NCBI GenBank assembly: GCA_963785165.1 | Contig: CAWAUI010000007.1 | Location: 1,304,725 to 1,368,724 of the forward strand | Source of the DNA: Thermoanaerobaculaceae bacterium | GTDB taxonomy: Bacteria > Acidobacteriota > Thermoanaerobaculia > Multivoradales > UBA5704 | Reading direction: 5' to 3' | DNA length: 64,000 nucleotides | Shown here: positions 11,413 through 40,146 of the stretch, one piece after another | Position numbering within the stretch: the stretch's first letter is position 1 | Layout of the letters: each line of letters opens with the position of its first letter | Notes under the pieces: generated by a model | Told to the model about the DNA's origin: nothing | The model's database searches: none | Seen by the model: only the letters and a program-made list of their open reading frames with translations | Made by a program: the position numbers and the translations under genes

Positions 11413-11417
11413 GGGCC

Positions 11418-12386: not shown

Positions 12387-12465
12387 GGATGGATCTCCTT
12401 TTGGGTTCAACCTCCTTTGAGGCGATCCATCCCCTCCAGCCGTTACATCGCGCGCGATGTGAGAC

Positions 12466-13218
12466 TTACTTCCTCCACGGCGCCAGCCGGCTCCACCAGG
12501 ACGCCGGCTGTTGGGTTGCGGTCTCCGGAGGATCCGTCTCGCCATAGCGGTGCAGCGGCGACGGGTCGTTCGGGGGCCACATGGAGCTGGTGGAGCCGTC
12601 GCGGTAGAAGGTGACGGTGACACTGCGGCGGGAGAGGCGGCTGCCGTTGACGACGGGGGCGACGGCGTGCCAGGAGCTCTCGGAGCGGACGAGCACGGCG
12701 GAGGTGCCTACGAGGGGCGGGATGACGGCGGCGACGTCCTTGTCGTCCGCGGAACGCAGGATGGACAAGCAGCCGCCGTCGTCCGGGTTCCACGACTCGT
12801 TGAAGTAGAAGACGTGGGTGACGACCTTGTCGGACAGGTCGGGGTGGGCGCCCAGCGAGGAGCCCGGGCCGTAGTGGAAGACGTTCACTTCGAGCGGCGC
12901 GGTGGCCAGGTCGCAGCCGGTCAGCCGCGACATGGCCTGGCGGTATTCCGGGGAGAGGAGGTCCGCCGCGAAACGCTTCCAGGCTTCGCTCAGCTCCTCG
13001 GGATAGGAAGCGGCCGCCGCGCCCATCCGGATCAGCGCGCGGGACTCGTATTCGTAGTCTTTCTCCCCACCGCGGCCCGACACCAATTTGAAATGATCGA
13101 GGGGATAGGTGGAGGCCAGGGCCGCGGCGTCCGGCGGCGAGAACAGGTCGTCGACCCGGGCCCAGCGGTAGGGTTCGGTTTCCAGCTTGTGCTGCTCGAT
13201 TCGGTCCAGTTGGATCAT
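12466..13218 (-). CDS. 2OG-Fe(II) oxygenase-superfamily protein (prolyl-hydroxylase-like)
   Basis: Intact 250-aa ORF. HxD...H pattern (GAHPDLSDK ... SSWHAV) followed by RRSVTVTFY. Its ATG overlaps the upstream stop (ATGA at 13215-13218). Confidence 0.6.
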   Translation of the reverse strand: MIQLDRIEQHKLETEPYRWARVDDLFSPPDAAALASTYPLDHFKLVSGRGGEKDYEYESRALIRMGAAAASYPEELSEAWKRFAADLLSPEYRQAMSRLTGCDLATAPLEVNVFHYGPGSSLGAHPDLSDKVVTHVFYFNESWNPDDGGCLSILRSADDKDVAAVIPPLVGTSAVLVRSESSWHAVAPVVNGSRLSRRSVTVTFYRDGSTSSMWPPNDPSPLHRYGETDPPETATQQPASWWSRLAPWRK

Positions 13219-14518: not shown

Positions 14519-14544
14519 GGAAAAGGAGAGTGAACGAGGGGGAT

Positions 14545-14618
14545 TGGCTGGGAGGCAGGGATTCGAACCCCGATTCTGCGGGTCAGAGCCGCATGTCCTA
14601 CCGTTGAACGACCTCCCA
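14545..14618 (-). tRNA. tRNA-Gln (anticodon CUG)
   Basis: Hand-folded 74-nt cloverleaf: acceptor UGGGAGG/CCUCCCA, discriminator G, encoded CCA, T-arm CGGGG-UUCGAAU-CCCUG, anticodon loop CU-CUG-AC. Confidence 0.85.
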
Positions 14619-14662
14619 GTAGAACAACAGGCCGGGAAGGGTAGCGAAACCCTTGCCCGGCG

Positions 14663-22410: not shown

Positions 22411-22648
22411 GCGTCCTACCTCGTAAAAAAGAAAATCGCCTGGGCGGACATCCCCAGGGGTGCAGTGCAAGTCCTACCGATACCCCTTTGGCTATTTTGT
22501 AGAACAAAGTCTAAGCTCCACCCGGCTTCCCGTCAACCACCCGCCCCTCTTTGAACGGAAACGGACCGCGCTCCGCTTCCCACCCCGGAGACGGCACGGC
22601 GATTGCGTGCCCTCTTCGCGCTCGAAGTCTCTTCAGGAAGGTTGTGAC

Positions 22649-24350
22649 ATGACGACAGATGCCATTCCGCTCTCGACGACTCTCCGGCGCACGCTGCGCC
22701 GTACGTTCGGCTTCCGCAAGCTCCGCGAGGGGCAGGAGGAGGTCATCCGCTCGGTTCTGGCCGGCAAGGACACCCTCGCCATCATGCCCACGGGAGCGGG
22801 CAAATCGCTCTGCTACCAGCTGCCGGGCGCGGAGCTGCCAGGCACCACGGTCGTCGTCTCCCCCCTGATCTCTCTGATGAAGGACCAGGTGGACAAGCTG
22901 CGCGAGCTGGGGATCGAAGCCGTCCAGGTCAACAGCACACTCACCGCCGCCGAGCAGAGCGAAGCGCTGGAGCAAATCGCCAAGGAACAGCGGGAGCTCG
23001 TCTTCGTGACCCCCGAGCGGGTCACCCAGCCGGAGCTGCCTGGCAACGCTCAAGACCAACAAGATCGACGTCTTCGTGATCGACGAGGCGCACTGCATTT
23101 CCCACTGGGGGCACGACTTCCGCCCCTCCTACCTGCACCTGCGCGCGGCCGTCGAGGCGCTGGGCAATCCCCCCATCCTGGCTCTCACCGCCACGGCCAC
23201 GCCCGAGGTGGTGGACGACATCCGGCGGCAGCTCGGCCGGGAGGAGATGACAGTGTTCGACATCGGCGTCTACCGCGAGAACCTCCGTTTCGAGGTCATC
23301 CCGTCCCCTCGGGAGGACTCCAAGCAGGCCCACCTCGTCCGGCTCCTGGGGGAGACGGAGGGTTCGGGCATCGTCTACGTCTCCACCATCAAGGACTGCG
23401 AGGCCGTCACCGACTACCTGGAGGGCCTGGGCTTCGGCGTGGGGCGCTACCACGGCCGGCTCGGCGGCCGCGAGCGCAAGAAGACCCAGGAGCGCTTCAT
23501 GTCCGGCGACCTGCGGGTGATCGTGGCCACCAACGCCTTCGGCATGGGGATCGACAAGCCGGACATCCGCTTCGTCATCCATTACAACCTGCCGGGGTCT
23601 CTCGAGTCCTACTACCAGGAGGCGGGCCGCGCCGGGCGCGACGGCGAGCCGGCCCGCTGCGTCCTCTTCTACCAGGCGGAGGACCGGAACACCCAGATCT
23701 TCTTCCTCAACGGGCGCTATCCGAAACAGGAGCACTTCACCGCCGTCTACAAGGCCCTGGAGAAGCTCGGGGCCGAGCGCCGGGAGGTCTCGATCGCCGA
23801 CGTCCACAAGCGCGCTTCGGCCGTGGCCCCGGCCAAGGCCAAGGTGGTGCTCGCCATGATGAAGGATCTGGAGATGGCGGCCGAGCCCCAGCCCGGCGAG
23901 TACCGTCTGCTGCGGGCCGACCTGACCGCGGAGGAGCTGGGCGAGATGGCCGGCCGCTACGAGAAGCGGGCCGAGGGTGACCGCGACCGGCTGCGCCGCA
24001 TGGTTCTCTACGCCCAGACCGCCCTGTGCCGCTGGAAGGCCATCCTCGACTACTTCGGCGAGCCGGCCGGCAGCGACTTCACGGGCGACCACTGCGGGCA
24101 CTGCGACAACTGCTCGCACCCCATCCGCGAGCTCGCCGCGCCGCCGCCGGCCGAGATCCCGCTCCGGCCGCCGCACGGCGCCACCGAGGTGCTCCCCCTC
24201 CCCCCGATCTTCGGCGACCGCGATCCGGCCACCCTCCAGGCCGGCGATGAGGTGACCCTGCCGATCTTCGGTGCCGGCAAGGTCGTGTCCAACGGCCGTA
24301 CCCTCGTCGTCGAGCTCTCCGGCGGGGAGGTGCGGGAGTTCCGCAGGTAG
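22649..24350 (+). pseudogene. recQ: RecQ-family ATP-dependent DNA helicase; single 1-nt insertion near 23039-23040
   Basis: ATG at 22649. Walker A MPTGAGKSLCYQLP. DEAH box VIDEAHCISHWGHDFRP lies in the frame of ORF 23076..24350. Removing one C from CTGCCTGGC restores ...PELLATLKTNKIDVFVIDEAH. Confidence 0.85.
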
Positions 24351-24429
24351 GGGGGCTGGTCGACTCCGCTACAATACGTCCTCTTTGCCGCCCCCCGTCC
24401 AGGGGAGCGCGGCGCGCGAGGGTTTCCTG

Positions 24430-27400
24430 ATGAGCGAGAAGCGATTTCCCGACGTCCCGGGCGGATACCCGTTCCCCCGGCTCGAGCAGGAGGTGCTGGC
24501 GGAGTGGCAGAGCCGGAGCGTCTTCGAGAAGACCCTGGAGAAGCCATCCCCAAAAGGGGAGTTCGTGTTCTTCGAGGGCCCGCCCACGGCCAACAACGTG
24601 CCCCACGTGGGGCACGTGGTCACCCGGGTGGTCAAAGATCTGTTCCCCCGCTTCCGCACCATGCGCGGCTATCACGTGGCCCGCAAGGCGGGGTGGGACA
24701 CTCATGGCCTGGCCGTCGAGATCGAGGTGGAGAAGCGCCTCGGGTTCTCCGGCAAGCAGCAGATCGAGGCCTACGGCATCGCCGAGTTCAACAAGGCCTG
24801 TCTGGAGAGCGTCCATGTCTACGAGCGCCAGTGGCGCGCCATGACCGAGCGCATCGGCTACTGGACGGACCTGGACCACGCCTATCTCACCTATACCAAC
24901 GAATACGTCGAGTCGGTCTGGTGGGCGCTCTCGGGAGCTCGCCGCGCGCGGCCTTCTCAACGAGGGCTACAAGATCCAGCCCTACTGCGCCCGCTGCGGC
25001 ACCACCCTTTCCAGCCACGAGGTGGCCCAGAACTACAAGGACGCGGACGATCCGTCCATCTGGACCCTGTTCCACGCCCGGCCGGGACAGTCGATCCGCA
25101 CGACGACGGAGGGAGAGTCCTGGGAGATCCCCCAGAGCCTCTATCTGGTCGCCTGGACCACGACGCCCTGGACGACCCTCGCCAACGTCGGGCTCGCCGT
25201 GCACCCCGATCTTCTCTATAAGGTCGTCGAGCACCCCGCCAAGCCGGGCGACCTCATCCTCCTGGGCGAGGATCTCGGCACCCCCGTTCCCGTGGTGATC
25301 GAGGAGGAAGGGAAGCGCCGGCAGATCGACTTGCGCGAAGCCCCCGCCCTGGCCCGGTTCCGTGGCCGGGACCTTGAAGGCGTGGTCTACGACCGGCTCT
25401 TCACCTTCTTCGAGCCGGACGTGCCGGGGAAGGTGGTCCTGGGCGACTACGTGACGGCGGCGGACGGCACCGGCCTCGTCCACACGGCCCCGCCCTTCGG
25501 CGAGGACGACTACCAGACCGGCACCCGCTACGGCCTGCCCATGATCCTCTCCGTGGATGGCGAGGGGAAGATCGTTCCCGGCGCCGGGGCCTTCGCGGGG
25601 CTGTGGTTCAAGGACGCGGACCCCAAGATCATCCAGGACTTGAAGAGCCGGGGCCTGATGCTCCACAACGACCGCTACCACCACAGCTATCCCTTCTGCT
25701 GGCGGTGCGACCGGCCGCTCCTCTATTACGCCACCACGAGCTGGTTCATCCGCACCACGGAGAAGAAGGCCGGGCTGGTGGCGAAGGACAAGGAGATCGA
25801 CTGGCACCCGCCGCACATCGGCGAAGGGCGGTTCGGCAACTGGCTGGAGAACCTGGTGGACTGGGCGCTGTCGCGCCGCCGGTACTGGGGCACGCCGCTC
25901 CCCATCTGGCGCTGCAACGAGTGCAACCACCAGCAGGTGATCGGCTCGTACGAAGAGCTGTTCGCCGCCTCGGGCCGGGAGAAGCCGGAGAACGTCTACG
26001 ACCCCGAGCAGTTCAACCCGCACCGCCCCTACGTGGACGAGATCGCCTGGCCTTGCCCGGAATGTGGTGACCGCGGGAAGGGGACGATGAGGCGGGTCGA
26101 GGAGGTCATCGACGCCTGGTTCGACTCGGGCGCCATGCCGTTCGCCCAGCACCACTACCCGTTCGAGAACCGGGAGCTGATCGACGGCCGCATCCAGTAC
26201 CCCGCCGACCTCATCTCCGAGGCGGTGGACCAGACGCGCGGCTGGTTCTACACCCTTCATGCCCTCGGTGTGCTGCTCTTCGATTCAGTCGCCTACAAGA
26301 CCTGCATCGTGCTCGGCCATGTCAACGACGAGCAGGGGCGGAAGATGTCGAAGCGCCTGGGCAACGTGGTGGAGCCCATGGCGGTGATCGCGGAGACCGG
26401 CGCCGACGCCCTGCGCTGGTATTTCTGCATCAACAACCCAGAGGTCCCGTCGCGCTTCTCGGCCCGGCTGGTGCGCGAGGCGGCCCAGGGGTTCCTGCTG
26501 CCGCTGTGGAACGCCCTGTCGTTCTTCACGATCTATTCGAATCTGGACGGCTGGCGGCCCGGCCCGGCGGAGCAGGCGCCGTTTGACGGCAGGCCCGCGT
26601 TGGACCGCTGGGTCCTCCTCCGCCTGGGCCGTCTGGTGAGCGACACCACGGCCAAGCTGGACGGCTATGACCTGAACGCCGCGGCGCGGGGCGTCGAGGA
26701 GTTCCTGGACGACCTGACGAACTGGTACATCCGCCGGAGCCGCAACCGCTTCTGGGCACCCAATGGTGAGGGGAAGCTCGGACAAGACGAGCGCCTACGA
26801 GGCCCTCTACGAGGTGCTCACCACGCTCGCCCGGCTGGTGGCCCCGTTCACCCCCTTCGTGGCCGAGATCCTCCACCGCCAGCTCGTGCGCAGCCAACGG
26901 GCGGATGCTCCCGAAAGCGTGCACCTGGAAGACTGGCCGGAACCGGTCGAGGGGCGGTCCGACGAGGCCCTGGAGAAGGGGATGGCCGCCGTGCAGCGCA
27001 TCGTCCGCCTTGGCCATGCGGCCCGGAACGTGCACTCGCTCAAAACCCGGCAGCCGCTCCCGGCGGTCACCTTGGTGACGGCGGACGAGGCGCTCCCCCG
27101 GCTGGTCGAGCCGTACCTCGACATCCTGCGCGACGAGTTGAACGTCAAGGAGGTGCGCTGGGCCGCGGACCGCACGGTTTACGTGCACCACGAGATCAAG
27201 CCCATCTTCCCCAAGACCGGCCCCCGGTTTGGCAAGAAGATGCCGGAGGTCAAGAAGGCGCTCGACTCAGGGGACGGCGACGCCTTGGCCGCGGAGCTCG
27301 AGCGGGCGGGGAAGATCACCCTTCAGATCTCGGACGGCCCCGCCGAGCTGTCGGCCGAGGAGGTCGAGGTCCGGCTCGTGGAGCGCGAAGGCACGGCCAC

Positions 27401-27686
27401 CCAGGGGGACCGCGAGCTGCTGGTGGCCCTGGAGACGGCGTTGACGCCGGAGCTGGAAGCCGAGGGCCTGGCCCGCGAATTCGTCCACTGGGTGCAGCAG
27501 GCGCGGAAGAAAGAGGATCTGGACTACGCGGACTGCATTCGGGTGACCGTCGAGGCCAGCCCGGAGATGAAGGCCGCCGTCGACGCCCATCTCGACTGGA
27601 TCCGGGGCGAGACCCTGGCCGTCGCGATCGAGGTCACGGAAGGGTCCGCGGGCGAGCCGGTGGTGCGGATCGAGAAGGCTCACTAA
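24430..27686 (+). pseudogene. ileS: Isoleucine--tRNA ligase; two +1 frame changes (near 24930 and 26765)
   Basis: ATG at 24430. HIGH motif PTANNVPHVGHVV; KMSKS motif GRKMSKRLGN. Pieces lie in ORFs 24271.., 25022..28441 (real up to about 26765) and 26763..27686. Confidence 0.9.
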
Positions 27687-27707
27687 GAGAAAGAATTGAG
27701 GGAGAGA

Positions 27708-29063
27708 ATGGCGGGAATCTTCAAAGCCTACGACATCCGGGGCCTCGTCCCCGGTCAGCTCAACGAGGAGATCGCGCGCAAGATCGGCGCCTCCTTTCAG
27801 TTCGTCCTGGACGAGGAAGACCGGGCGCTCGGCAACGCCGTGGTGGTGAGCCGCGACATGCGCTCCCACAGCCCGGGTCTGGAGCGGGCGGTCATCGACG
27901 GCCTCACCGCGTCGGGTCTGGACGTGGTCGAGATCGGCCTCTCGACCACGCCCATGAATTACTTCGCCATCAGCCACTTGAAGACGGCCGGCGGCGTGCA
28001 GGTCACGGCCAGCCACAACCCGGCCGAGTACAACGGGCTCAAGTTCAGCCGCCACGGCGCCCGGCCCGTCTCGGGAGACCACGGCATCGCCCTCATGGAG
28101 GAGAAGGTCAACACCGGCGACCTCCCCGAGGCGGCGGCGCCGGGCACGGTGACCCAGGCGAACGTCTTCGAGGAGTACTCGAAGCACGTCCTCTCCTTCC
28201 TGCGGGGAGCCGAGGGGAAGCGCCTCAAGGTGGTGGCCGACGCCGCCAACGGCATGGGGACGATCGACCGGCCCATCCTGGAGGCCATGAACATCGAGCT
28301 GATCCCCCTCTACTTCGAGCTCGACGGCACCTTCCCCAACCACGAGGCCAATCCCCTCAAGGAAGAGAACCTCCACGACCTCATGCGGGCCGTGCGCGAG
28401 CACAAGGCCGACCTGGGCGTCTCCTTCGACGGCGACTCTGACCGCGCGGCCTTCATCGACGAGCGGGGCCAATCCATCGGCAGCGACCTCATGACGGGGC
28501 TGATCGCGGGCGAGCTGTTGAAGCGCGAGCCCGGCAAGGCGGTGGTCTACGATCTCCGTTCCTCGCGGGCCGTGGCCGAGTACATCGAGGAGAACGGCGG
28601 CGTCCCCGTGCGCGAGCGGGTGGGGCATTCCTTCATCAAGGCCACGCTCCGGAACCGCAACGGCATCTTCGGCGGCGAGCTGGCCGGCCACTACTACTGG
28701 CGCGACCACTCCTACGCCGACTGCCCGCTGCTCTCCCTGGTGGAGGTGCTGAACCTTCTCCGGTCGAGCGGCAAGCCGCTCTCCGAGCTCGTGGCCCCCC
28801 TCAGGCGCTACTCCAAGAGCCCGGAGATCAATTTCGAGGTGGAAGACAAGCAGGGGAAGATGAATGAGCTGGCCCAGCGCTTCTCCGACGCCCAGATCGA
28901 CCACCTGGACGGCATCACCTTCAGCTACCCCACCTGGTGGGCGAACGTCCGCCCCTCCAACACCGAGCCGTTCCTGAGGCTGGTGCTGGAGGCCAAGACG
29001 CCGGAGGAAATGGAGAGCCGGAAGAAGGAGCTGATCGGGATTCTGGGAGAGCCGGCGGAGTAG
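27708..29063 (+). CDS. Phosphomannomutase/phosphoglucomutase (alpha-D-phosphohexomutase)
   Basis: ATG at 27708 after GAGGGAGAG. Active-site TASHNPAEYNGLKF. Mg site FDGDSDRAAF. Intact. Confidence 0.85.
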   Translation: MAGIFKAYDIRGLVPGQLNEEIARKIGASFQFVLDEEDRALGNAVVVSRDMRSHSPGLERAVIDGLTASGLDVVEIGLSTTPMNYFAISHLKTAGGVQVTASHNPAEYNGLKFSRHGARPVSGDHGIALMEEKVNTGDLPEAAAPGTVTQANVFEEYSKHVLSFLRGAEGKRLKVVADAANGMGTIDRPILEAMNIELIPLYFELDGTFPNHEANPLKEENLHDLMRAVREHKADLGVSFDGDSDRAAFIDERGQSIGSDLMTGLIAGELLKREPGKAVVYDLRSSRAVAEYIEENGGVPVRERVGHSFIKATLRNRNGIFGGELAGHYYWRDHSYADCPLLSLVEVLNLLRSSGKPLSELVAPLRRYSKSPEINFEVEDKQGKMNELAQRFSDAQIDHLDGITFSYPTWWANVRPSNTEPFLRLVLEAKTPEEMESRKKELIGILGEPAE

Positions 29064-29117: not shown

Positions 29118-29227
29118 TTTCGGGCGGCGGGTCCTCGAAGTGGGCCGCCTGCTAAGATCCCTGCCGTGAGAGTGAGAGGAGCACAACCGTGGTAACACGC
29201 AATCCCTTTCCTGGCGGCCCCGGCCGC

Positions 29228-30028
29228 ATGGGCATGAGCAGCTTCGGCCTCGGGGGTCCGGCTCCCCGGGACCTGCTGATCCTCATCGGCGTCCTGTTCG
29301 TCACGTTCGCCCTGCGGTTTTTCGAGACGACGGCGATCATTCCCGCCCTGCTGGACCTGACGCCCGCGGTCTGGCAGCGGGGATGGGTGTGGCAGTTGGT
29401 CACCTATCCCTTCATGGGGTACGGGAGCCCGGGGATCTGGTTCCTGCTGGAGCTGCTCTTCCTCTACATGTTCGGGCGGGACGTGTACTACGGGCTCTAC
29501 CGGCGGCACTTCTGGCGGCTGATCCTGTTCATCTCAGCCGCTTCGGCCCTGCTGGCGGTGGGCGTTCACGCTCTCCTCACGCTGACGGGGGCGATGCAGA
29601 CGCCGGCGCCGTTCACCATCATGCAGGGCCAGCGGGTGCTGATGGCGATCTTCGTGGCGGCCTTCGCCACGGCGCACAAGGACGCGACGATCTATCTCTT
29701 TTTCGTCCTGCCCATCCGTGCCCGCTGGTTCCTGGGCCTGGAGATCGTCTTCGCCTTCATGGCCTTCCTGGTCACCCGCGACCTCCCGGGCTTCCTGGGC
29801 ATCTGCGCGGCCACGGGCCTCACGTATCTCTACGTCCGCTCCAGCGGCTCGTTCAAGGGCGGCAGGCGGACCCTGCGGGAAATCCGGCTGCGGCTGGAGC
29901 GCTGGTGGATCCAGAAGAAGCTGGAACGGGCACGGCGCAAGCGGGGTTTCAAGATCATTCCGGGCGAAGGCGGGCGGGGCGGAAGCGGCGGTGGGCCGAA
30001 CGTGCGGAAGGGGCCTTGGGTGAATTGA
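29228..30028 (+). CDS. Rhomboid-like polytopic membrane protein, apparently lacking the GxSG catalytic serine motif
   Basis: ORF 29189..30028, ATG at 29228/29234. WQRGWVWQLVTYPFMGYG...LLELLFLYMFGRDVY resembles rhomboid L1/TM2. I found no GxSG. Basic C-terminal tail. Confidence 0.4.
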   Translation: MGMSSFGLGGPAPRDLLILIGVLFVTFALRFFETTAIIPALLDLTPAVWQRGWVWQLVTYPFMGYGSPGIWFLLELLFLYMFGRDVYYGLYRRHFWRLILFISAASALLAVGVHALLTLTGAMQTPAPFTIMQGQRVLMAIFVAAFATAHKDATIYLFFVLPIRARWFLGLEIVFAFMAFLVTRDLPGFLGICAATGLTYLYVRSSGSFKGGRRTLREIRLRLERWWIQKKLERARRKRGFKIIPGEGGRGGSGGGPNVRKGPWVN

Positions 30029-30189
30029 TAGCGGGATAGCGGTGCATTTATAAGCTTTCCCTTTCCGGCCCCGCGTGTTATAAAAACTTCGCAAGCTGAA
30101 AAGTTGTTCCCTGGGCTGCTCGCGGCCAGCCCTGCCTGGGCTCGCCTGTGCCCGGGGTCCGCGAGGAGTCCGTCCAGAAAGGGGCGAAC

Positions 30190-33100
30190 ATGTCCTTCGG
30201 GAACGCGACTTCCTCTCCCCGCCGCCTCGTCGTCTCCTTGTGCTTCGCGCTGCTGGCCCTTCCAGCCGGCGCTCAGGTGCCCTGGTGCGCGGAGGATCCT
30301 CTCAATCCCGGCGCCCAGCCGTACCCGGCGCCGAAGTGGAGCGATCTCGGCACGGCAGTTCCTGACTATCACGAGGTGACGGAAAATTTCCGGATCGCGC
30401 AGAGCCTGCGGCTGCTGGCCACGGTCCTGGAGAAGAGCCTGGAGCAGTTGCGGAGCGGCAAGAGCCTGGCCGGCACGTCCGACATCGATGGTGCCTGCCT
30501 GTGCAACTGCAACGTCCAGGACGTCTCCTACTGGGCCAATTTCCTCGAGACGACGGTCAGGACCGAAACGGAGCAGGCGCTTCAGAAGACGCAGGACCGT
30601 TATCTGAGCGACATCCAGGCCAAGATCGACAAGGGAAAGAAGGTGCTGGAGGACACGGTCCCCGCGTTCAAGATGGACGTGGAAGGGATCATCAAGAACA
30701 CTTGCGAGACGCTGGTCACCTGCGATCCCACGGATCCCAATGCGGTCCTCGAGGATCTCTACGAGGAGGGGGCGGAAACCGTACAGGGAGAGCTCGACGA
30801 GATTCTCGGCCCGGAGATCAGCGCGGCCAAACTGAAGCAGCTCAAGATGGAGACCGAGGATCTGCTCAAGGAAGTGAAAGACCTCCTGGCGCGGGTCTCC
30901 GGTCCCGGCGCAGGACAGGTGCTCTCGCTTCAGCAGGAACGGGAGCGGATCAAACAGGTGATCGAAAAGGCCCGCAAGCTTTTCGACGATCTGGAGGCGA
31001 GCACGAGGGCTCTGGCGGACCTGGTCAAGAACAGTGACCCGATAGCCTGGAAGAAGCAGGTCGAGAAGGCCTTGACCGATCGGCTCGGCCAGATCGTCGA
31101 GCAGGACGGCCAGGTCTTTGAAGCCATGAAGGTTCAGATCCGCACGAAAATCGACGAGCGCATCCAGGCGATCCGGACGGCGGCCGAGGACATCTACGAA
31201 ACCGCGACGGACGGCCAGAAGGCGTTCGATCAGTTCAAGATGGAGCTCGCGAATGGGCTCCTCGACAGCCTGACCTCGGTCGAGGGGTGCTATGGGATAA
31301 CGAAGCGCAAGGACTGCAGCGTCGATGCCTTCTGCAGCAGTAACTCGCAGCCGGGCATGCTCTTCGGCAACGAGAACCTGGAGCTTCCTCTCTGGATCCC
31401 CACCGGGGTGTTCAAGGACGGCAAGACGGCGCTGCGCTACGCGCTCGAATCGATCGACTGGCTGGAGAAGGTGCGGGATTACCTCAACAGCGCCGAGGCA
31501 CCCGCCGCGGTCGGCGGTGGCAGGCTGGTGTCCCTGCTGAAAGACGGCGACGAGCTGATCATGAAGCTCAACCACTATGTCGATCTCTTCACCGAGGGGT
31601 ATCACCTGGGGGCTTACGCGGACATCCGGCCGGACCTCCACATGTGCGTCGGTTGGGCCGGCCACGGGGCTCTGGCCGAAGTCTTCAGCACGGCGAACGG
31701 TAATTTCCGGGGCGGCGCGAGCTATCTGTCCGCGAACCTGGTGGAGAAACACCGGGCGCAGTTCCGCGCCGGCGGCTTCGCCCTCTTCATCAACGGCCGT
31801 ACCCTGCCGCTCGCTCCCGGACTGTCGGTCAATCTGCAGATGGACGGGTTCCGGCTGTGGGATAGGAATCATCCTTTCGGCATCCAGGAGGTTGACGACA
31901 ACGGCCTCTTCTCGGTGGACACCTCCAAGGTGGAGGAATACGACGTCTTCAACCTGGTGGAGGAGAAAGACCTGCGTCGTTTCTGCTGCGCCGACCTGTC
32001 TACAGATTGTCCAGAGACATCCTGCATGCTCGGCATCGAGGATTTCCTTCATGATCAGTTTTTCCCCGTGAGGTACGGCTCGAGCCGGGAGTGGCCGCGG
32101 CCGGGCGTCGAGGCGGAGAAGGACCAGCGCGTCTCGGCGGTGTTCGGCGCGGGCGTGAACCTCGACCTGGAGATGAAGACCCGTTATTGGAGCGCGGCCC
32201 CGATCCCGGTGTTTCCCGGGGCCACGATCATTCCCTGGCTGTCTCTGGACGCCGGCATCAACTGGCTCTATGACGCGAACCACCTCCGCGGCATCCTCCA
32301 GGAAAAGATCAATCAGAACTTACCCGCGGCGAGCCGGCTCAACAACGATGATTTCAAGCGCGACCAGCATGCCTTCCAGGCACCGGACGTGACGGAGGAC
32401 GTGGGCAACGGCGCCCATGTCAATCCCAAGCTCGGAGCCGACCTCGTCCTGGGCATCGACATCGCCCGTTTCCTGAGAGTGGGAGTCACGGCCAACCTCT
32501 TTGTCGGGGTGGACGTGAATGCCGCGGGTTTTGGAGGCGTGCTCGACCTCAGCCGCGCCCTCACCGAAACATTGGCCCAGAGCAATCCCGAGGGAGACGA
32601 CTGTACGCCGAAGATCGAAGAGAACGTCACGCGTACGTGCTCCAATGAGACGTTCAAGAAGAAAGACCCGTGCGCGAACGTCCCCGAAGAGGACCGTGAA
32701 GATTGCATCGACCTCTCGGAAACGGAACCGGAGGGTGTGCTCTATTCAACGGGAACCTATGACTGTACGGAAGAGAACCTCGCCTGCGACGGCGGAAACG
32801 GCTATTGCACGGATGTCAGAGGACAGATCGTCCTCCACGACGTCACCCGGGATCAGTGCGAGGCCGAGCTGCCGGTCTCCCGGTGCGTGGCGGTATACAA
32901 AGACTTCCCTGGTGGCCTGGGTTCCATCAGCAGCCCTGAAGATGTGATCGATCAGTGGCCACCCGTAGGCATTCATAACTCCAAAGGCCATCAAGAGGGC
33001 GAAGTGGCGAAGGCGCAGGCCGCAGCGGGCCGGCTCGCGGCCCCCCAGTCCTGCTCGTCTCTGGGCTGGTGCTACAACTGGGGTTACAAACCTGGCGTCG

Positions 33101-36100
33101 GCGGCTTCGATTATGTCGGAGTCTTCACGGGAACGGCGGCGTCCCAGGAGGCTTGCCCGCCGGGGCTCTACCGGAATGGCCGGCCTATCCCTATTTTCTC
33201 CCAGTTCATTCCGTTCGAATGGCAGGTCCAGGGTCCCATCCCCGAAACCACGAAGATCGGCCGCACGTTCCATCCCTATCAGTGCGTCCAATCCTCGCGT
33301 CCAGAGGTGACGGGCTTCGAGGGGCCGGACTGCAATCCGATCGAGTTCGGCTACCCGTCGGCGTGTCCCGGGGAGTCCTGCTCGTGCGATCCCAAGGCAC
33401 CGGCGCCGGGCTGCGCGGCCGGACGGACGTGCGTGGAGGGAGCCTGCCTCACCCAGTGCGGGACGTGCGGCGCGGGCCAGGCCTGCCGGAACGGTACGTG
33501 CGAGATGACCAATGGCGTCCCGTTCGCCGAACAGATCGTCTGGCGCCTCCGCAACGCCGGCCAGCCCCAGCACACGGTGGCGAGCTATTCACTCAACAAG
33601 CTGATCACCAGCGTCGCCCTGGGCTTCGGCGTGCGGGTGGGGCTGGATTACAAGCTGTTCCGGAGCTGGAAGAGCAAAAACCTGATCGATTTCAAGAAGT
33701 CGATCCCCCTGGTCGCGTTCCCCTTCGTCAAGCACCAGCTCGGGCTCGAAGCCCAGTACCAGGACGACTGCGATCCCAGCCTGGGCGAGGTCACGAACCA
33801 CCAGCCTGACCTGGTGAAGCGTCCGCCCGAGATCCCCACCGAGATCCGCACCTCGTCCGAGTTGGTGGCATGGTGCAAGCCGCAAATGGAGGCCGAGCCG
33901 GAGAACCCTGCCGCCATGGCTCCGCACGACCAGGTGATTGGCGAGGGGATCGAGGAGAGCTTCAAGTTCGCCACCGACATCGGCGTGGACTTCTGGGGCC
34001 GGAGCCAGCTCTGCGTGGGAGACCAGACGTGGGACCAGTACTTCGGGAGCTTCAAGAGCAATCCCACCTCGGTGTGGCCGAAGCTGAGCTGCTCCTATCT
34101 CCGCGGAGGTGTGCGGCGGACGCTCTCCTGCGTGAGCCCGGGCGACCTCCAGGGCTCTCTGGTGACGGCCCTCGGATGCCTCGATGCCGCGGGGCCGGAC
34201 GCCCTGCCCAGGAGCACGCAGCTCCTCGCTCTGCTCCGCTCCCGGGGCCAGGCGGACCCCTGGCTCCTCACCCCCGGCGGAAACGTCTTCGATCTGAAAA
34301 AGCTTCTGGTCGATGACGAGGGTGAGATCGTGCGGTCCAATCTCGATCCGTTCATCCTCAGCCTGGAAGCGGACGGCTTCCCCATCGACCTCTGGCTCCA
34401 GGCCGTGAACGTCTGCGTGGGAGACGCCCCGGCCGGCCGGCTCGTGGACGCGAACCTGGAGGTCTCCCTGGACCTCGATCCCGACGACTTCCAGCCATGC
34501 GGCGGCTTCTGCTGCGTGGACGGCATTTGCGATCCGGTGGCCTCGCCGGCTCAGTGCCAGGGAACGTTCCAGCCGGGCACCACGTGCTTCAGTCCCGACG
34601 CGGGCCCCGGCTGTGAGCCCGGCTCCGGAGGGCCGCCGCCGGGCCGGGGCGCCTGCTTCCTCTTCGGCCAGTGCCAGGAGGTGGCCTCGGCGGCCCAGTG
34701 CCAGGGCTCCTTCTTCTACGCCGGAATGAAGTGTAAGGATCTGGGATCGGCCTGCGCCACGGATGCGGACTGCACGCCGGGCAACTGGTGCCGCCCGGTG
34801 GCCCAGGGCGGCCGAGAATGCGTGCCCTTCCAGTCCGAGGGGGGTCACTGCGGCGGCTTCGTCGCGCCCTGGAACCGGGAAATCTGCGCGCCTGGGCTTC
34901 TCTGCACGGATTTCATCGAGCCGACGGGCGACCTCGGCGGCTTCTGCCGCCGGTCCTGCGCCGCGCCGCCGGTGGAGCTCGCCGCCTGGTGGCCTCTCGA
35001 CGAGCCGGCGGGCCCCAAGGCCGCCGAATTCCTGGCAAAGAACGACGGCCGCCACGTGGCCGGCCCCACCCCGGTGACGGGAGCCGTGGGCCGGCGCGCG
35101 CTCCGCTTCGACGGCGTCGACGACTTCCTGGAGGTCCCCGATCATCAGGACCTGGACTTCGGCACGGGGGACTTCTCCTTCGCGGCCTGGATCCGGACGT
35201 CGCACGACAGCGGCGTCCAGTCCATCCTCGACAAGCGCCGCAACGGTGTGGGCTACCACCTCTATCTGCACAACGGCCGGCTGGGGCTGCAACTGGCCGA
35301 TGGCCGGTACGACAACTACACCTCGCAGGCCGTGGTATCTGACGGGGCGTGGCACTTCGTGGCCGTGACCGTGGAGCGAGGCCGTAGGGACGGCATCCGC
35401 TGGTATCTCGACGGCGCGCCCGTGGGCCCGCCGAACGATCCCACGGGCCACCCGGGCTCGCTCAGCAACGCCTCTCCCCTGCGCTTCGCCGTCCGCACGG
35501 TCTCCCGCAGCGGCTGGTGGAACGGGTCTCTCGACGAGCCGGCCCTCTTCAGCCGCGCCCTCACCCCGGCCGAGGTGGAGGCGGTGCGCAAGGCCGGCTC
35601 GGCCGGTCTCTGCAAATGCATCGGGGAGCACCGCAACCTCGAGGCGTACTGGCCCTTTGAAGAGGGCGCCGACTTCCTTGGCAGCCTCTCCGCGGCCGAT
35701 GCCTCGGGGCACGGCCACACCGGGGAGAAGGTCAACCAACCCGCTTCGGTGCCGGGCCGGGTGGGCCGAGCGCTCGACTTCGACGGCGTCGACGACTGGG
35801 TGCGGGTGCCGCCTGCCCCGGGTCTCAACCTGGGCGAGGGGAACCTCTCGCTGGAGGGTTGGATCCAGACCACCGACAGGGTAGGGACGCGGGTGATCCT
35901 CAGCAAGCGGAGCTCCCTGACCGGCTATCAGCTCGTCCTGCTGGACGGCCGGCTGGCTCTGCAACTCGGCGATGGCAGGTTCACCCTCTTCGACTCCAGG
36001 GTGGCCGTGGCCGATGGCCAGTGGCACCATGTGGCGGTGACGGTGGAGCGCCAGAGCCCGAGAGGCGTTCGCTTCTATCTGGACGGCCGGGAGGCGGGGA

Positions 36101-36324
36101 GGCCAGGGAATGCGACTCTCCGGAGCGGCTCCCTGGACAACCCGTCACCCTTGCGGCTCGGAACCCGGACGGCCCGGACGGGCGCGTTCTGGAAGGGGAG
36201 GCTCGACGAGATGACGGTCTACCGCCGTCTCCTCCTCCCCGAGGAGATCACCGCCATCTACCGGGCGGACAAGCTCGGCCGGTGCGCCGCCCATCCGATC
36301 GTGGTCCGGCCGCGGTTGGATTGA
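30190..36324 (+). CDS. Giant secreted multidomain protein (2044 aa): signal peptide, helical/coiled-coil region, beta-rich region with Cys-rich inserts, two C-terminal LamG (Laminin_G_3) domains
   Basis: Uninterrupted ORF 30148..36324, ATG at 30190 (MSFGNATSSPRRLVVSLCFALLALPAGAQV). LamG_3-like repeats begin near 34981 (AAWWPLDEPAG...ALRFDGVDDFLEVPDHQDLDFGTGDFSFAAWIR...LDEPALFSRALTPAEV) and near 35641 (EAYWPFEEG...ALDFDGVDDWVRVP...LDEMTVYRRLLLPEEI). Confidence 0.85.
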   Translation: MSFGNATSSPRRLVVSLCFALLALPAGAQVPWCAEDPLNPGAQPYPAPKWSDLGTAVPDYHEVTENFRIAQSLRLLATVLEKSLEQLRSGKSLAGTSDIDGACLCNCNVQDVSYWANFLETTVRTETEQALQKTQDRYLSDIQAKIDKGKKVLEDTVPAFKMDVEGIIKNTCETLVTCDPTDPNAVLEDLYEEGAETVQGELDEILGPEISAAKLKQLKMETEDLLKEVKDLLARVSGPGAGQVLSLQQERERIKQVIEKARKLFDDLEASTRALADLVKNSDPIAWKKQVEKALTDRLGQIVEQDGQVFEAMKVQIRTKIDERIQAIRTAAEDIYETATDGQKAFDQFKMELANGLLDSLTSVEGCYGITKRKDCSVDAFCSSNSQPGMLFGNENLELPLWIPTGVFKDGKTALRYALESIDWLEKVRDYLNSAEAPAAVGGGRLVSLLKDGDELIMKLNHYVDLFTEGYHLGAYADIRPDLHMCVGWAGHGALAEVFSTANGNFRGGASYLSANLVEKHRAQFRAGGFALFINGRTLPLAPGLSVNLQMDGFRLWDRNHPFGIQEVDDNGLFSVDTSKVEEYDVFNLVEEKDLRRFCCADLSTDCPETSCMLGIEDFLHDQFFPVRYGSSREWPRPGVEAEKDQRVSAVFGAGVNLDLEMKTRYWSAAPIPVFPGATIIPWLSLDAGINWLYDANHLRGILQEKINQNLPAASRLNNDDFKRDQHAFQAPDVTEDVGNGAHVNPKLGADLVLGIDIARFLRVGVTANLFVGVDVNAAGFGGVLDLSRALTETLAQSNPEGDDCTPKIEENVTRTCSNETFKKKDPCANVPEEDREDCIDLSETEPEGVLYSTGTYDCTEENLACDGGNGYCTDVRGQIVLHDVTRDQCEAELPVSRCVAVYKDFPGGLGSISSPEDVIDQWPPVGIHNSKGHQEGEVAKAQAAAGRLAAPQSCSSLGWCYNWGYKPGVGGFDYVGVFTGTAASQEACPPGLYRNGRPIPIFSQFIPFEWQVQGPIPETTKIGRTFHPYQCVQSSRPEVTGFEGPDCNPIEFGYPSACPGESCSCDPKAPAPGCAAGRTCVEGACLTQCGTCGAGQACRNGTCEMTNGVPFAEQIVWRLRNAGQPQHTVASYSLNKLITSVALGFGVRVGLDYKLFRSWKSKNLIDFKKSIPLVAFPFVKHQLGLEAQYQDDCDPSLGEVTNHQPDLVKRPPEIPTEIRTSSELVAWCKPQMEAEPENPAAMAPHDQVIGEGIEESFKFATDIGVDFWGRSQLCVGDQTWDQYFGSFKSNPTSVWPKLSCSYLRGGVRRTLSCVSPGDLQGSLVTALGCLDAAGPDALPRSTQLLALLRSRGQADPWLLTPGGNVFDLKKLLVDDEGEIVRSNLDPFILSLEADGFPIDLWLQAVNVCVGDAPAGRLVDANLEVSLDLDPDDFQPCGGFCCVDGICDPVASPAQCQGTFQPGTTCFSPDAGPGCEPGSGGPPPGRGACFLFGQCQEVASAAQCQGSFFYAGMKCKDLGSACATDADCTPGNWCRPVAQGGRECVPFQSEGGHCGGFVAPWNREICAPGLLCTDFIEPTGDLGGFCRRSCAAPPVELAAWWPLDEPAGPKAAEFLAKNDGRHVAGPTPVTGAVGRRALRFDGVDDFLEVPDHQDLDFGTGDFSFAAWIRTSHDSGVQSILDKRRNGVGYHLYLHNGRLGLQLADGRYDNYTSQAVVSDGAWHFVAVTVERGRRDGIRWYLDGAPVGPPNDPTGHPGSLSNASPLRFAVRTVSRSGWWNGSLDEPALFSRALTPAEVEAVRKAGSAGLCKCIGEHRNLEAYWPFEEGADFLGSLSAADASGHGHTGEKVNQPASVPGRVGRALDFDGVDDWVRVPPAPGLNLGEGNLSLEGWIQTTDRVGTRVILSKRSSLTGYQLVLLDGRLALQLGDGRFTLFDSRVAVADGQWHHVAVTVERQSPRGVRFYLDGREAGRPGNATLRSGSLDNPSPLRLGTRTARTGAFWKGRLDEMTVYRRLLLPEEITAIYRADKLGRCAAHPIVVRPRLD

Positions 36325-37613: not shown

Positions 37614-37689
37614 TGGTAGCGCATACGGGATTCGAACCCGTGTTACCGGCGTGAGAGGCCGGCGTCCTGGACCCCTAGACGAATGCGCC
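37614..37689 (-). tRNA. tRNA-Glu (anticodon CUC)
   Basis: Hand-folded 76 nt: GGCGCAU/AUGCGCU acceptor, D-arm GUCU-AGGGGUCC-AGGAC, anticodon loop CU-CUC-AC, T-arm ACGGG-UUCGAAU-CCCGU, A-CCA encoded. Confidence 0.85.
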
Positions 37690-37883
37690 ACATGTCCGAT
37701 GAGCCGTCCCACGGACCCGCGAAGGGTAACATAGACAGTTCAGGCCGTTCAACCCGTCAAGTGCGGGTCGTATTCCGTGGACGGGCCGAGATGCCGGCGG
37801 GCCCTGTTCCCGCGCGGCCTCGCACCTGTCTCTTGTGTAGGGGCCGCTTGTGTAGAGGTGAAGCGGGAAGGAGCGAGATTCTT

Positions 37884-39530
37884 TTGACTATCAAGCTGGT
37901 TGCCGCCGCCGGAAGCCCCTCCGTCCTGGTGACGGGCGGCCGCTCGTTCCTCGTGGGACGCTCGGCGTCGTGCGACCTGCCGATCCAGGATCCCACCGTG
38001 TCGCGGCGCCACGCCGAGCTGGAGCTGACGGGTGCCGGCGTGCGGGTGCGGGACGTGGGCTCGACCAACGGCACGTATCTCGACGGCGTGCGGGTGACCG
38101 ACGCCCTGGCCACGCCGGGTTCGCGGGTGTCCTTCGGCAAGATGGAGTTCGACGTGGTGGCCCAGCGGCCGGAGGAGACCCTCCCTCTCGAAGAGATGCT
38201 GGGCGAGGACTCGCTCGACGCCACCATCCTGCGCCAGGTGCCGGTGCGCGGCCAGGCGGACGTCGCCTCCCAGCTCGGGGACGGGCACCGGGGCGACTCG
38301 CTGCTCAAGATCGGCGGCGACTCGCTGGAAGACCGGCAGGCGCGCAAGCTCAATCTTCTTCTGGAGATCGCCAAGGAGCTCTCGCAGCAGACCGAGGTCG
38401 ACCGGCTGCTCGACCGCATCGTGGGCCTCACCTTCCAGGTGATGGACGTAGACCGGGTCGCCATCATGACGGCCGAGGCCGGCGAGGAGCTCGTGCCGCG
38501 GGTCTGGCGCAGCCGGGTCGAGGCGCCGGCCGGAAGCTGGCGGGTGCCGCGGCGGATCGCGCGCAAGGCGGTGGAGGACCGGGTCGCCGTGCTCTCGAAC
38601 CTGGCGGACGACGACAAGGCAGCCGCGGCATCAGGGGGCGGGGGCGGGGGCGGCACGGGATCACGGATCGAGAGCGCCCTCTGCGCTCCCCTTCTGGGCA
38701 GCGAGGGGACGGTGCTGGGCATCATCTACCTCGACCATCTGGGGAAAGGTCAGGGCAATGGCCAGTCCTTTCAGCGGGAGGATCTGGAGTTCTTCACCGC
38801 CTTCGCGGGCATGGCGGCGGTCGCCATCGAGAACAGCCGGCTGATCGACCGCATGCGGCGCGAGGCGGTGGTGCTCTCGAACTTCCAGCGCTACTTCGCG
38901 CCCGACCTGGTGCGCCAGATCGCGGACCAGGAGAGCGCCATCCAGCTCGGCGGCGCCAAACGGCGGGCCGTGGTGCTGTTTTCCGACATCCGCGGCTTCA
39001 CCTCCATCTCCGAGAAGATGAGCCCGGACGACATCGCCACCCTGCTGACCGACTACTTCACGGAGATGGTGGAAATCGTCTTCGAGCACGGCGGCACGCT
39101 CGACAAGTTCATGGGCGACGCCCTGATGGCCCTCTGGGGCGCTCCCCTTTCGCGGCCGGACGACGCGGACCGGGCCGTGCGGGCGGCCATGGCCATGCAG
39201 CGCAAGCTCACGCGGCTGAACCGCCAATGGCGCGAGCAGGGGCGGCCCCCGCTCACCATCGGCATCGGCATCAACCAGGGCGAGGTCTTCGCGGGCAACA
39301 TCGGCAGCGCCCGCCGCCTGGAGTACACGGTCATCGGCGACGCCGTCAACATCGCGGCCCGCCTCTGCGCCGAAGCCGAGCCCGGCGAGATCCTCATCGG
39401 CGAGCCCCTCTTCGCCGCCCTCCGCCAAAAACCCCCCGGTTCCTCCCTCACTCCTTTGCCGCTACGGGGAAAGGCACAGCCCGTGGGGGTGTACAGCGTG
39501 GATTGGGAAGAGGGGCAGACGGCGCAGTAG
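37884..39530 (+). CDS. FHA-GAF-class III adenylate/guanylate cyclase
   Basis: ORF 37683..39530, but its 5' end overlaps the tRNA. TTG at 37884 lies 10 nt after GGAAGGAG; alternative ATG at 37791. FHA: FLVGRSASCDLPIQDPTVSRRHAEL...GSTNGTYLDG. Cyclase: VLFSDIRGFTSISE, KFMGDALMALWGAP, YTVIGDAVNIAARL. Confidence 0.8.
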   Translation: MTIKLVAAAGSPSVLVTGGRSFLVGRSASCDLPIQDPTVSRRHAELELTGAGVRVRDVGSTNGTYLDGVRVTDALATPGSRVSFGKMEFDVVAQRPEETLPLEEMLGEDSLDATILRQVPVRGQADVASQLGDGHRGDSLLKIGGDSLEDRQARKLNLLLEIAKELSQQTEVDRLLDRIVGLTFQVMDVDRVAIMTAEAGEELVPRVWRSRVEAPAGSWRVPRRIARKAVEDRVAVLSNLADDDKAAAASGGGGGGGTGSRIESALCAPLLGSEGTVLGIIYLDHLGKGQGNGQSFQREDLEFFTAFAGMAAVAIENSRLIDRMRREAVVLSNFQRYFAPDLVRQIADQESAIQLGGAKRRAVVLFSDIRGFTSISEKMSPDDIATLLTDYFTEMVEIVFEHGGTLDKFMGDALMALWGAPLSRPDDADRAVRAAMAMQRKLTRLNRQWREQGRPPLTIGIGINQGEVFAGNIGSARRLEYTVIGDAVNIAARLCAEAEPGEILIGEPLFAALRQKPPGSSLTPLPLRGKAQPVGVYSVDWEEGQTAQ

Positions 39531-39633
39531 GTTCACCTGCCCTGGGATGGGTACCGGGGCTCTGATCCGGGAATGGTCCCTCGCCAGGAGAAGCCAAAGG
39601 CATTGTTGCCGTTGATCTCCAGAAGGTGTCGCC

Positions 39634-40146
39634 ATGATCAAAAACGAGCGCGAGTACCGCATCACCAAAGCCCAAGCGCTGAAATTCGAGCAGGCCCTCT
39701 CACAACTCTCTGGCCCGGGAGAAGGCGCCCAGCTCCATCCTCTGGTGAAAAAGGCACAGGTGGATGCTGTTTGGAGTCAACTGGAAGAACTGAAGGAGGA
39801 GCTGGCCGAATATGAGCTGTTACGGTCCGGGGGATGCTCCGTGTTGTCGCTGGACTCTCTTGGAGAGCTTCCCAAAGCTTTGATCCGTGCCCGCATAGCG
39901 GCTGGTCTGACCCAGCGCGAGCTTGCCGGGAGGCTCGGGCTCAAGGAACAACAAATCCAGCGTTATGAGGCGACGGAGTATGCCTCCGCGGACTTTGCTC
40001 GCCTGAACGAGGTCGCACGGGCTCTGGGTGTCCAGGTGCGAGAAGATCTCTTCCTCAATACTCCTCAACCACTCTCCGAAGAATTACTCCAGCGCCTGAA
40101 GGAAGTGGTGCAACAGACCGTGGTGGCTTTTTCCAAAAACGCGTGA
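39634..40146 (+). CDS. XRE-family HTH protein with N-terminal helical extension (HigA/antitoxin-like architecture)
   Basis: ATG at 39634. MIKNEREYRITKAQALKFEQAL... then the HTH LIRARIAAGLTQRELAGRLGLKEQQIQRYE. Lower GC than its neighbours. Confidence 0.7.
   Translation: MIKNEREYRITKAQALKFEQALSQLSGPGEGAQLHPLVKKAQVDAVWSQLEELKEELAEYELLRSGGCSVLSLDSLGELPKALIRARIAAGLTQRELAGRLGLKEQQIQRYEATEYASADFARLNEVARALGVQVREDLFLNTPQPLSEELLQRLKEVVQQTVVAFSKNA

Follow-up and report, generated by a model that had tools for sequence, protein, structure and literature searches.

The giant gene and its product

We analysed a stretch of 64,000 nucleotides (the window) from contig CAWAUI010000007.1 of a Thermoanaerobaculaceae bacterium, and the subject of this report is a giant gene at positions 30190-36324 on its + strand, a single open reading frame (ORF) of 2,044 codons counted from ATG. 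The gene is genuine and intact and, judged from its sequence, codes for a Sec-exported, disulfide-rich, modular extracellular protein. The mature protein is ~219 kDa and has 69 Cys. The ATG at 30190, for which a GTG at 30148 is an alternative, agrees with the start of P0001, the closest homologue, and 5' of it is AAAGGGG, which is rich in purines and resembles a Shine-Dalgarno element; the stop codon ends at 36324. The intergenic leader probably holds the giant gene's own promoter; a sigma-70 consensus was looked for in the leader and none was found. The parts of the protein are collected in the table.

Features of the giant gene and its leader (positions are those of the window; aa, amino acids of the encoded protein; nt, nucleotides)
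Feature	Position	Strand	Basis
Intergenic leader, AT-richer, 160 bp	30029..30189	+	contains AAAGGGG 7-13 nt before ATG
Sec signal peptide, aa 1-28, predicted signal peptidase I cleavage between AGA and QV	30190..30273	+	read from sequence; position kept in homologues
Conserved N-segment, aa 29-115 (PWC, PYPAPxWS, PDYxxV, NFxxxQSLRLL, DGxCLCNC), family-wide	30274..30534	+	alignments
Charged insert, aa 116-362, probably helical, lineage-specific	30535..31275	+	composition, comparison with relatives
Core block 1, aa 363-800, beta-rich; motifs TEGYHLGAY..RPDLHxC, WPR, QAPDVTxD, GGxxD	31276..32589	+	alignments, model
Variable central insert, aa 801-1024, Cys-rich here (12 Cys)	32590..33261	+	comparison with relatives
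Core block 2, aa 1025-1210: PYQC..GxEGPDCNP, small Cys-knot cluster, AEQIxW, long beta-hairpin, QLGLEAQYQDDC	33262..33819	+	alignments, model
Family-specific domain, mostly helical, aa 1211-1436	33820..34497	+	AlphaFold models
Two ~40-aa 6-Cys repeats (CCxxGxC...C.G.F..G..C), aa 1437-1515	34498..34734	+	sequence, homologues
Cys-rich Dickkopf_N (PF04706) module, aa 1516-1592	34735..34965	+	Pfam match
LamG domain 1 (Laminin_G_3 / ConA-like jelly roll), ~aa 1596-1800	34975..35589	+	Pfam, PDB sequence match
LamG domain 2 (Laminin_G_3), ~aa 1820-2030	35647..36279	+	Pfam, NCBIfam, PDB sequence searches

The original prediction, made by reading the sequence alone, held that this 2044-aa ORF is intact in a contig that is full of indels, and we find both statements to be correct. 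The isoleucyl-tRNA synthetase (IleRS) gene upstream is broken over three reading frames (24271-25221, 25022-~26765 and 26763-27686) and a RecQ-like helicase gene over two (22460-23980 and 23076-24350). These breaks, all within window positions 22460-27686, look like uncorrected long-read indel errors rather than pseudogenes. Since housekeeping genes that adjoin the giant gene are frameshifted, the quality of the contig is poor and it could be argued that the giant ORF is itself non-functional, whether as a long ORF that arose by chance, as what is left of a pseudogene or as a chimera of the assembly. Against this, the GC content at third codon positions (GC3) is 0.67-0.90 in the frame of the ORF in every 300-nt bin, so that codon periodicity extends over all 6.1 kb. 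When the DNA was aligned with that of the closest relative, locus L036 (85% nt identity), all of the 11 indels were multiples of 3, which rules out hidden compensated frameshifts. Colinear full-length homologues exist at 40-83% identity, and the pattern of Cys residues and motifs is kept across phyla. The artefact explanation is thereby effectively excluded. Homopolymer runs of 5 or more occur at 1.6/kb in the giant ORF as against 3.0-5.0/kb in the neighbouring genes. If the indels in the contig are homopolymer sequencing errors, as we infer, then this density, about half of that in the neighbours, would partly explain why the ORF is intact. It was also observed that the GC content is 62-63% at window positions 30001-34000, which is the N-terminal two thirds of the gene, compared to 67-70% in the flanks and the LamG part. 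Because GC3 remains high there, this dip is mostly a matter of amino-acid composition and not an obvious sign of foreign origin.

That the protein is secreted had been proposed from its signal peptide, and this is supported by comparison: the hydrophobic core is followed by A-G-A and then Q at aa 26-29, and the cleavage site is at the same position in 11 aligned homologues. The C-terminal LamG pair, the only part that had been recognized, was recovered by Pfam as two stretches of Laminin_G_3 (PF13385) with 156.1 bits (cut-off 27.6; E 9.5e-46), and among PDB sequences it matched 4qvs (E 1.8e-6) and 4c1w (E 0.004). The two jelly rolls thus resemble the LamG modules of other secreted bacterial proteins, namely, the S-layer-domain protein 4qvs, the lectin domains of sialidases and the receptor-binding N-domain of clostridial neurotoxins, but they make up no more than ~400 of the 2,044 residues and give no hint of what the core is.

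The family and its shared architecture

The original prediction called the N-terminal ~1,550 residues unassignable, and for ~1,450-1,550 residues this was upheld by Pfam, NCBIfam, PDB sequence and profile searches and Foldseek. Residues 1-~1,450 have no match in Pfam, NCBIfam or PDB sequences. When the whole protein, parts of it and more than 25 relatives were scanned, accessory domains only were found, there being no model for the core in Pfam or NCBIfam, and PDB sequences gave nothing for the core, whether the query was the protein by itself or a profile of 16 sequences. No confident match to a characterised adhesin or toxin was found in any of these searches, and relatives have the ORF at full length and in colinear form.

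Three word-index searches of 5.8 billion sequences gave 18, 10 and at least 10 matches, the 18 being proteins retrieved with aa 1-1537 as the query and the third search being done with a profile. A profile of aa 360-1460 was then compared with 1.84 billion cluster representatives and it matched 115 proteins at E <=1e-3, 82 of them at E <=1e-30. The weakest of the 115 matches are mostly short and fragment-sized, and no tail into another family was seen among the members that were scanned against Pfam. The relatives with LamG domains form a clade that is colinear over the full length; they are 40-83% identical to the window protein, the mean column identity is 57%, and ~60 Cys are invariant. A distant clade is 27-32% identical and its alignment falls into two blocks, aa 44-826 and aa ~1016-1450. 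In a scan of species-representative genomes the family was found in 29 species, which are mostly Myxococcota, including Bradymonadia and the cultured Sorangium sp. So ce131, while the rest are Binatia, Acidobacteriota (Terriglobia and Thermoanaerobaculia) and one metagenome-assembled genome (MAG) of Gammaproteobacteria. The closest named relatives of the window protein are from Acidobacteriota. Literature searches found no description of the family or of its core. Taken together, these comparisons show that the unassigned region defines a real, rare and undescribed family.

Two of the loci call for separate mention. In a long-read Acidobacteriota MAG (MFD01213.bin.1.234; L021 8756-14714) the homologue lies in two overlapping ORFs, 8756-11740 and 11523-14714, and because it is frameshifted the database holds a truncated product of 942 aa, P0012. 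Sorangium sp. So ce131 (NZ_CP150455; L022 9212-16708) is the only cultured strain with a complete genome in which a member was found. The gene, at ~2.52-2.53 Mb (L022 9212-14917), codes for a lipoprotein in which a long poly-Ser linker and an inserted NHL propeller occur together with a CBM96/DNRLRE domain at the C-terminus, and a VWA-domain gene follows it.

The window protein was compared with the minimal member P0030 (1,037 aa), the Sorangium protein (1,901 aa) and a clade with the C-terminal MYXO-CTERM tag (~2,400-2,530 aa), and a shared plan was evident. It begins with an export signal and the N-segment (PPRPxW..PDYxNV..NF..SLxLL..GxCxC), which may be followed by a helical insert. Then come core block 1 (TEGYHLGAY..RPDLHxC, WPR, QAPDxTxD, GGxxD), a variable insert, and core block 2 (PYxC..GWxGPGCxP, small Cys knots, AEQIxW, QxGLEAxYQ). 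The plan ends with the helical domain, Cys repeats, variable binding modules and an optional MYXO-CTERM tail. The variable insert, which is Cys-rich in the window protein, is RCC1, NHL or another beta-propeller in Myxococcota relatives and amounts to almost nothing in P0030. The 6-Cys repeat has up to five copies in relatives, and the binding modules at the C-terminus are LamG, CBM96/DNRLRE, dockerin, TSP3 and PG_binding, with one subtilase. From this comparison the invariant unit of the family is ~1,000 residues, made up of the N-segment, the split beta-rich core and the helical domain, and the lineages insert modules at two hot-spots and append binding modules C-terminally. In the window protein a charged helical segment of ~250 aa and a Cys-rich domain of ~220 aa have been inserted, and the C-terminal additions comprise two 6-Cys repeats, a Dickkopf_N-like knot and the pair of LamG jelly rolls.

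A helical domain followed by a beta-rich core had been proposed for the N-terminal region. The second half of this proposal stands because AlphaFold predicts the beta-rich stretches as strands, but the first half does not stand as a feature of the family. Residues 116-362 are probably helical, with 34% charged residues and 48% A/E/L/K/Q, and Pfam gives weak noise of the coiled-coil type only. However, this segment is a lineage-specific insertion that is longer in the MYXO-CTERM clade and, since it is missing from the minimal members and the Sorangium protein, it is not in the invariant unit.

Relatives differ from the window protein in how they are anchored. A lipobox-like motif is present in 29 of the 82 near-full-length members, and a MYXO-CTERM-like tail with Cys, a transmembrane helix and an Arg-rich end in at least 11. 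P0014-16 and P0019-22 are among those with the tag; P0014 reaches 19.9 bits with TIGR03901, and JGI lists P0021 as a MYXO-CTERM protein. In Myxococcus xanthus the MYXO-CTERM tag is cleaved by myxosortase and the protein reaches the cell surface via type II secretion, and in Myxococcus a lipobox together with MYXO-CTERM means lipid anchoring at the cell surface after type II secretion (PMC11980579). TIGR03901, which describes a C-terminal Cys motif, a transmembrane helix and an Arg-rich tail, was sought in the window protein and was not found, the protein ending with ...GRCAAHPIVVRPRLD and having no transmembrane helix, and neither a lipobox nor TIGR02232 repeats are present in it. TraA and the MYXO-CTERM surface proteins of Myxococcota with Cys repeats (PMC11980579; PMC6372800) are comparable in that they are large and exported and have a variable recognition module and runs of Cys-rich repeats. 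The likeness extends in relatives to myxo_disulf_rpt/DUF4215 repeats, to the MYXO-CTERM tail in many of them, and to a gene that stands alone and has polymorphic modules. TraA differs in that it has a PA14-like variable domain and no counterpart to the ~1,000-aa core, and the window protein for its part lacks MYXO-CTERM, lipobox and TIGR02232 repeats and has no TraB-like partner gene beside it.

When all ORFs from 35 loci were compared with each other by BLAST, only the giant gene and its antisense ORFs recurred. As no neighbour recurs in the 35 loci, the gene is a stand-alone unit, probably transcribed independently, and it appears to act alone and not with MltA or the membrane protein that are encoded on either side of it in the window.

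Structure and possible function of the core

When aa 360-1460 of the window protein were modelled by AlphaFold with 19 sequences, the model had a pLDDT (predicted local distance difference test) of 56 and a pTM (predicted template modelling score) of 0.30, and it was confident only at aa ~899-1009 and ~1269-1440. Foldseek with this poor model gave noise only. The helical domain, which is acidic with an isoelectric point (pI) of 4.3, is the best-modelled portion of the window's own protein, with a pLDDT of 80-90 from ~aa 1269. The minimal member P0030, modelled with 35 sequences, gave a pLDDT of 71.8 and a pTM of 0.62. Its beta core, at 80-95, has ~14-16 strands, some of them 26-29 residues long, and is followed by a confident helical domain; two long hairpins in this model correspond to aa ~737-786 and ~1130-1192 of the window protein. 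P0030 is 32% identical to the window protein and some of the family motifs are lost in it (RPDLHxC..GHG has become RPALWHC..GSG).

The conservation of the core was examined in an alignment of 87 sequences with ~25-35% mutual identity. R480, R724 and D786 are 100% conserved, D733 and Y1190 are 99% conserved, and W402, W635, W692 and E1114 are conserved at 96% or more, with R637 within 96-100%. In core block 1 the near-invariant residues over these sequences are W402, R480, C486, W635/R637, W692, R724, D733 and D786. Alongside these polar and aromatic residues ~20 Cys are conserved family-wide. The strands alternate in strict dyads, one face being ~100% hydrophobic over 15-17 residues and the other being Gly, small or polar, and the tight turns at aa 757-763 and 1155-1164 have conserved Lys/Arg and Trp/Phe. 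An internal repeat among the four beta-rich sub-regions was sought with hhalign and rejected, the best probability being 45%.

With the P0030 model Foldseek found no match at E <=1e-3 in PDB and nothing in BFVD. The best PDB matches, with E from 7e-3 to 0.1, were TonB-dependent receptors, BamA, SusC, LptD, porins and a perforin pore. These have in common with the core a long antiparallel beta-meander with strands that are hydrophobic on one side and Gly/polar on the other, and they are its only, weak, structural neighbours. Since the TM-scores were 0.05-0.14 and the root-mean-square deviation (rmsd) was >30 Å, the likeness is one of local strand pattern and not of fold; no sequence-family match to these barrels and pores was obtained, and the core, in addition, is disulfide-rich. 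One reading of this pattern is that the core is an integral outer-membrane beta-barrel, like an inverse autotransporter or an outer-membrane protein (OMP) with giant loops, that displays the inserts and the C-terminal modules outside. The strands do look like those of OMPs, with Gly or small residues on one face, hydrophobic residues on the other and aromatic residues at the ends, with short turns at one end and long inserts at the other, and the best matches of both models were outer-membrane barrels. However, none of these matches was significant or gave a superposition, no TM-score above 0.5 was reached, and there was no OMP or autotransporter match in Pfam. The hydrophobic faces are longer than a membrane belt and the core has many conserved disulfide Cys. 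Folded propellers of 300-400 aa or Cys-rich domains in the loops would be hard to square with insertion by the barrel assembly machinery (BAM), and so would a MYXO-CTERM tail, which implies inner-membrane processing and type II secretion (PMC11980579). We therefore regard an integral barrel as improbable. The disulfide-rich core and the surface-sorting tags in family members suggest instead that the protein folds in the periplasm and is then exported.

The same hairpins could be taken to mean that the protein is a membrane-active effector that is used against neighbouring cells, its long amphipathic hairpins entering the target membrane after the LamG domains or propellers have docked. The 26-29-residue strands and their confidence in the model, the strict alternation with one hydrophobic face, the basic and aromatic residues at the tight turns, and the perforin pore and beta-barrels among the weak Foldseek matches are all in keeping with this. 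Myxococcota and Bradymonadia, in which the family is concentrated, are known predators. On the other hand, alternation of hydrophobic and polar residues is equally expected of a soluble beta-sandwich, and, going by the order of the strands, the chain exits the last core strand at the end where the basic turns are, so that these turns may contact the acidic helical domain and not a membrane. No toxin family was matched, including Tc; in particular, the beta-pore-forming families (MACPF/CDC, aerolysin/ETX-MTX2, leukocidin and binary-toxin PA) had no Pfam match in the window protein and 21 relatives. The sole toxin among the Foldseek matches was the perforin pore 7pag, with E 0.099 and a TM-score of 0.05, and no immunity gene is conserved beside the giant gene. 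An effector of this kind is in our view rather unlikely. The original prediction had mentioned pore-forming or lipid-binding toxins as a speculation, and speculation it remains; the barrel and perforin matches are not fold matches. A wider version of the idea, which we rate as somewhat more doubtful again, is that the core is a new fold for contact-dependent membrane engagement, either a beta-hairpin pore-former or a device for membrane fusion or exchange. It would be displayed at the surface between two lipid anchors in Myxococcota and would be a LamG-targeted soluble form in Acidobacteriota, with swappable propeller, LamG and CBM modules setting the target.

The near-invariant residues raise the question whether the core is a secreted enzyme with a new catalytic fold that cleaves or modifies an extracellular polymer, be it polysaccharide, peptidoglycan or protein, to which the LamG, CBM96 and dockerin modules target it. 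Many carbohydrate-active enzymes carry substrate-targeting modules, and the accessory set of Laminin_G_3, CBM96/DNRLRE, dockerin and PG_binding is commonly fused to extracellular enzymes. R480, R724, D733, D786, E1114, Y1190, H472, W402, W635 and W692 are near-invariant even though the sequences are so divergent, and a gene that works alone would suit an enzyme. However, no likeness to an enzyme in Pfam, NCBIfam or PDB was seen by sequence, profile or fold, several of the motif residues are replaced in P0030 as described above, and propellers in the middle of the core and lipid anchors at both ends of many members fit receptors better. An enzyme is thus a serious alternative, though on balance we consider it unlikely.

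The reading that we tentatively favour, as the leading one among several, is that the protein may be an extracellular ligand-engaging protein, that is, a non-catalytic platform for recognition or adhesion. We lean to it because the accessory modules are of binding types, because relatives are doubly lipid-anchored and because propellers are inserted in the core. The modules, namely, LamG, CBM96/DNRLRE, dockerin, TSP3, PG_binding and RCC1, NHL and other propellers, are all of kinds that bind outside the cell. The protein would pass the inner membrane by Sec and fold oxidatively in the periplasm. Extracytoplasmic folding is indicated by the number of Cys, of which most are invariant in the LamG clade. 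It would then be released or displayed at the surface, as the lipobox and MYXO-CTERM of relatives suggest. On a surface or a polymer the LamG pair and the Cys modules would bind a glycan or protein ligand. The conserved core would provide the activity common to the family, which we picture as non-catalytic engagement of an envelope or polymer surface through the invariant Arg, Asp, Trp, Tyr and Glu residues and the sheet of long beta-hairpins. Several observations weigh against a recognition platform. The core has no homologue of known function in Pfam, NCBIfam or PDB and no fold match by Foldseek in PDB or BFVD; invariant charged residues in such number would be expected of an enzyme or an ion-binding site sooner than of a mere scaffold in a passive adhesin; lipid anchor and sorting tag are both missing from the window protein, which may end up free or bound to its own cell; and the structure model is that of P0030, a distant and minimal homologue in which some motifs are lost.

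The propellers in the core of relatives also invite comparison with other proteins. In TcB/RHS cocoons and in teneurins a beta-propeller is inserted in or beside a shell of beta-hairpins, and the NHL or RCC1 propeller of the Myxococcota relatives likewise sits in the middle of a beta-rich core. The strands, however, are much longer here and the window protein has a Cys-rich insert and not a propeller. YD/RHS repeats had no Pfam match in the window protein or its relatives, and no RHS or teneurin shell was among the top 50 Foldseek matches. Giant exported proteins whose binding modules can be swapped are common, and bacterial ones that combine LamG and Cys modules are of a known kind; what sets the present protein apart, as far as literature searches, sequence comparison and modelling go, is an invariant core with no relative in sequence or fold. 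The ~1,000 residues are conserved over at least three phyla with no Pfam or NCBIfam model, PDB relative or fold neighbour, and the near-invariant set of Arg, Asp, Trp and Tyr suggests that the core has a defined biochemical activity. If, on the contrary, it is merely a structural scaffold, it would simply join the many orphan domains whose function is unknown. Since the family is enriched in the social and predatory Myxococcota and Bradymonadia and its members are often lipid-anchored at both ends, it may act in cell-cell or cell-substrate contacts of soil and sediment bacteria. The member in the cultured Sorangium sp. So ce131, with its complete genome, makes the function open to experiment.

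The Dickkopf_N-like module and the neighbouring genes

The 10-Cys module that precedes the LamG pair had been said to recall Dickkopf and colipase folds. The isolated module, aa 1522-1572, scores 29.2 bits (cut-off 25; E 1.1e-6) with Pfam Dickkopf_N, the N-terminal Cys-rich domain of Dickkopf proteins (PF04706), and it aligns over profile positions 2-45 of 51. The score falls to 21.4 bits, which is below the threshold, when the module is scanned within a 171-aa segment. Dickkopf_N was also the top family for this module in 8 of 9 LamG-clade homologues, and in 4 of them, besides the window's own, it reached 25 bits or more. The profiles for colipase, prokineticin and the C-terminal domain of Dickkopf (DKK-C) did not match the module at E up to 10 in the longer segment or at E up to 1 when it was isolated. 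The Dickkopf half of the comparison is thus retained for the N-terminal domain, and the colipase or DKK C-terminal fold is not. The window protein differs from Dickkopf in that it has no DKK C-terminal or colipase-fold domain and no Wnt-pathway context. A bacterial module that matches the animal-type Dickkopf_N is conserved throughout the Acidobacteriota-type LamG clade, which is of some lesser interest for how Cys-knot domains have evolved.

Upstream of the giant gene are the frameshifted IleRS gene, a phosphoglucomutase-type gene (27696-29063) and a gene (29189-30028, +) whose product is a polytopic membrane protein of 279 aa that ends in a basic tail. This protein had been described as rhomboid-like, but this identity was rejected: the protein has no Pfam, NCBIfam or PDB match, hence no rhomboid hidden Markov model match, nor can a GxSG motif be seen in its sequence. 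With the product of a gene (L036 221-1000) upstream of the 81%-identical homologue it shares 73% identity. Downstream lies MltA on the - strand, as had been stated, followed by a gene for an FHA-GAF-adenylate cyclase. Conservation of the membrane-protein gene and MltA as neighbours had been suggested as a check, and it does not extend beyond local synteny since no neighbour family recurs across the 35 loci. An opposite-strand gene for a product of 431 aa is present downstream only in the 81%-identical relative L036; synteny is already gone at 65% identity, and neither MltA nor any other recurring neighbour is found at L001, L003, L004 and L006.

At L001 (3065-7569 and 9139-9522), beside the homologue P0006, there is a lanthipeptide cluster with a LanB dehydratase, a LanC cyclase and a 55-aa candidate precursor, and at the same locus two tiny ORFs (60 and 64 aa) lie directly upstream of the giant gene and a transposase downstream. 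The cluster, the tiny ORFs and the transposase are conserved at no other locus. In the window, the FHA-GAF-adenylate/guanylate cyclase gene (37683-39530, +) is followed by a small gene for an Xre-type helix-turn-helix (HTH) protein at 39634-40146. Over 37683-39530 GC3 peaks not in the frame of the cyclase but in that of an overlapping 531-aa ORF (37970-39565) that has no Pfam match, which hints at a reading-frame problem in this stretch.

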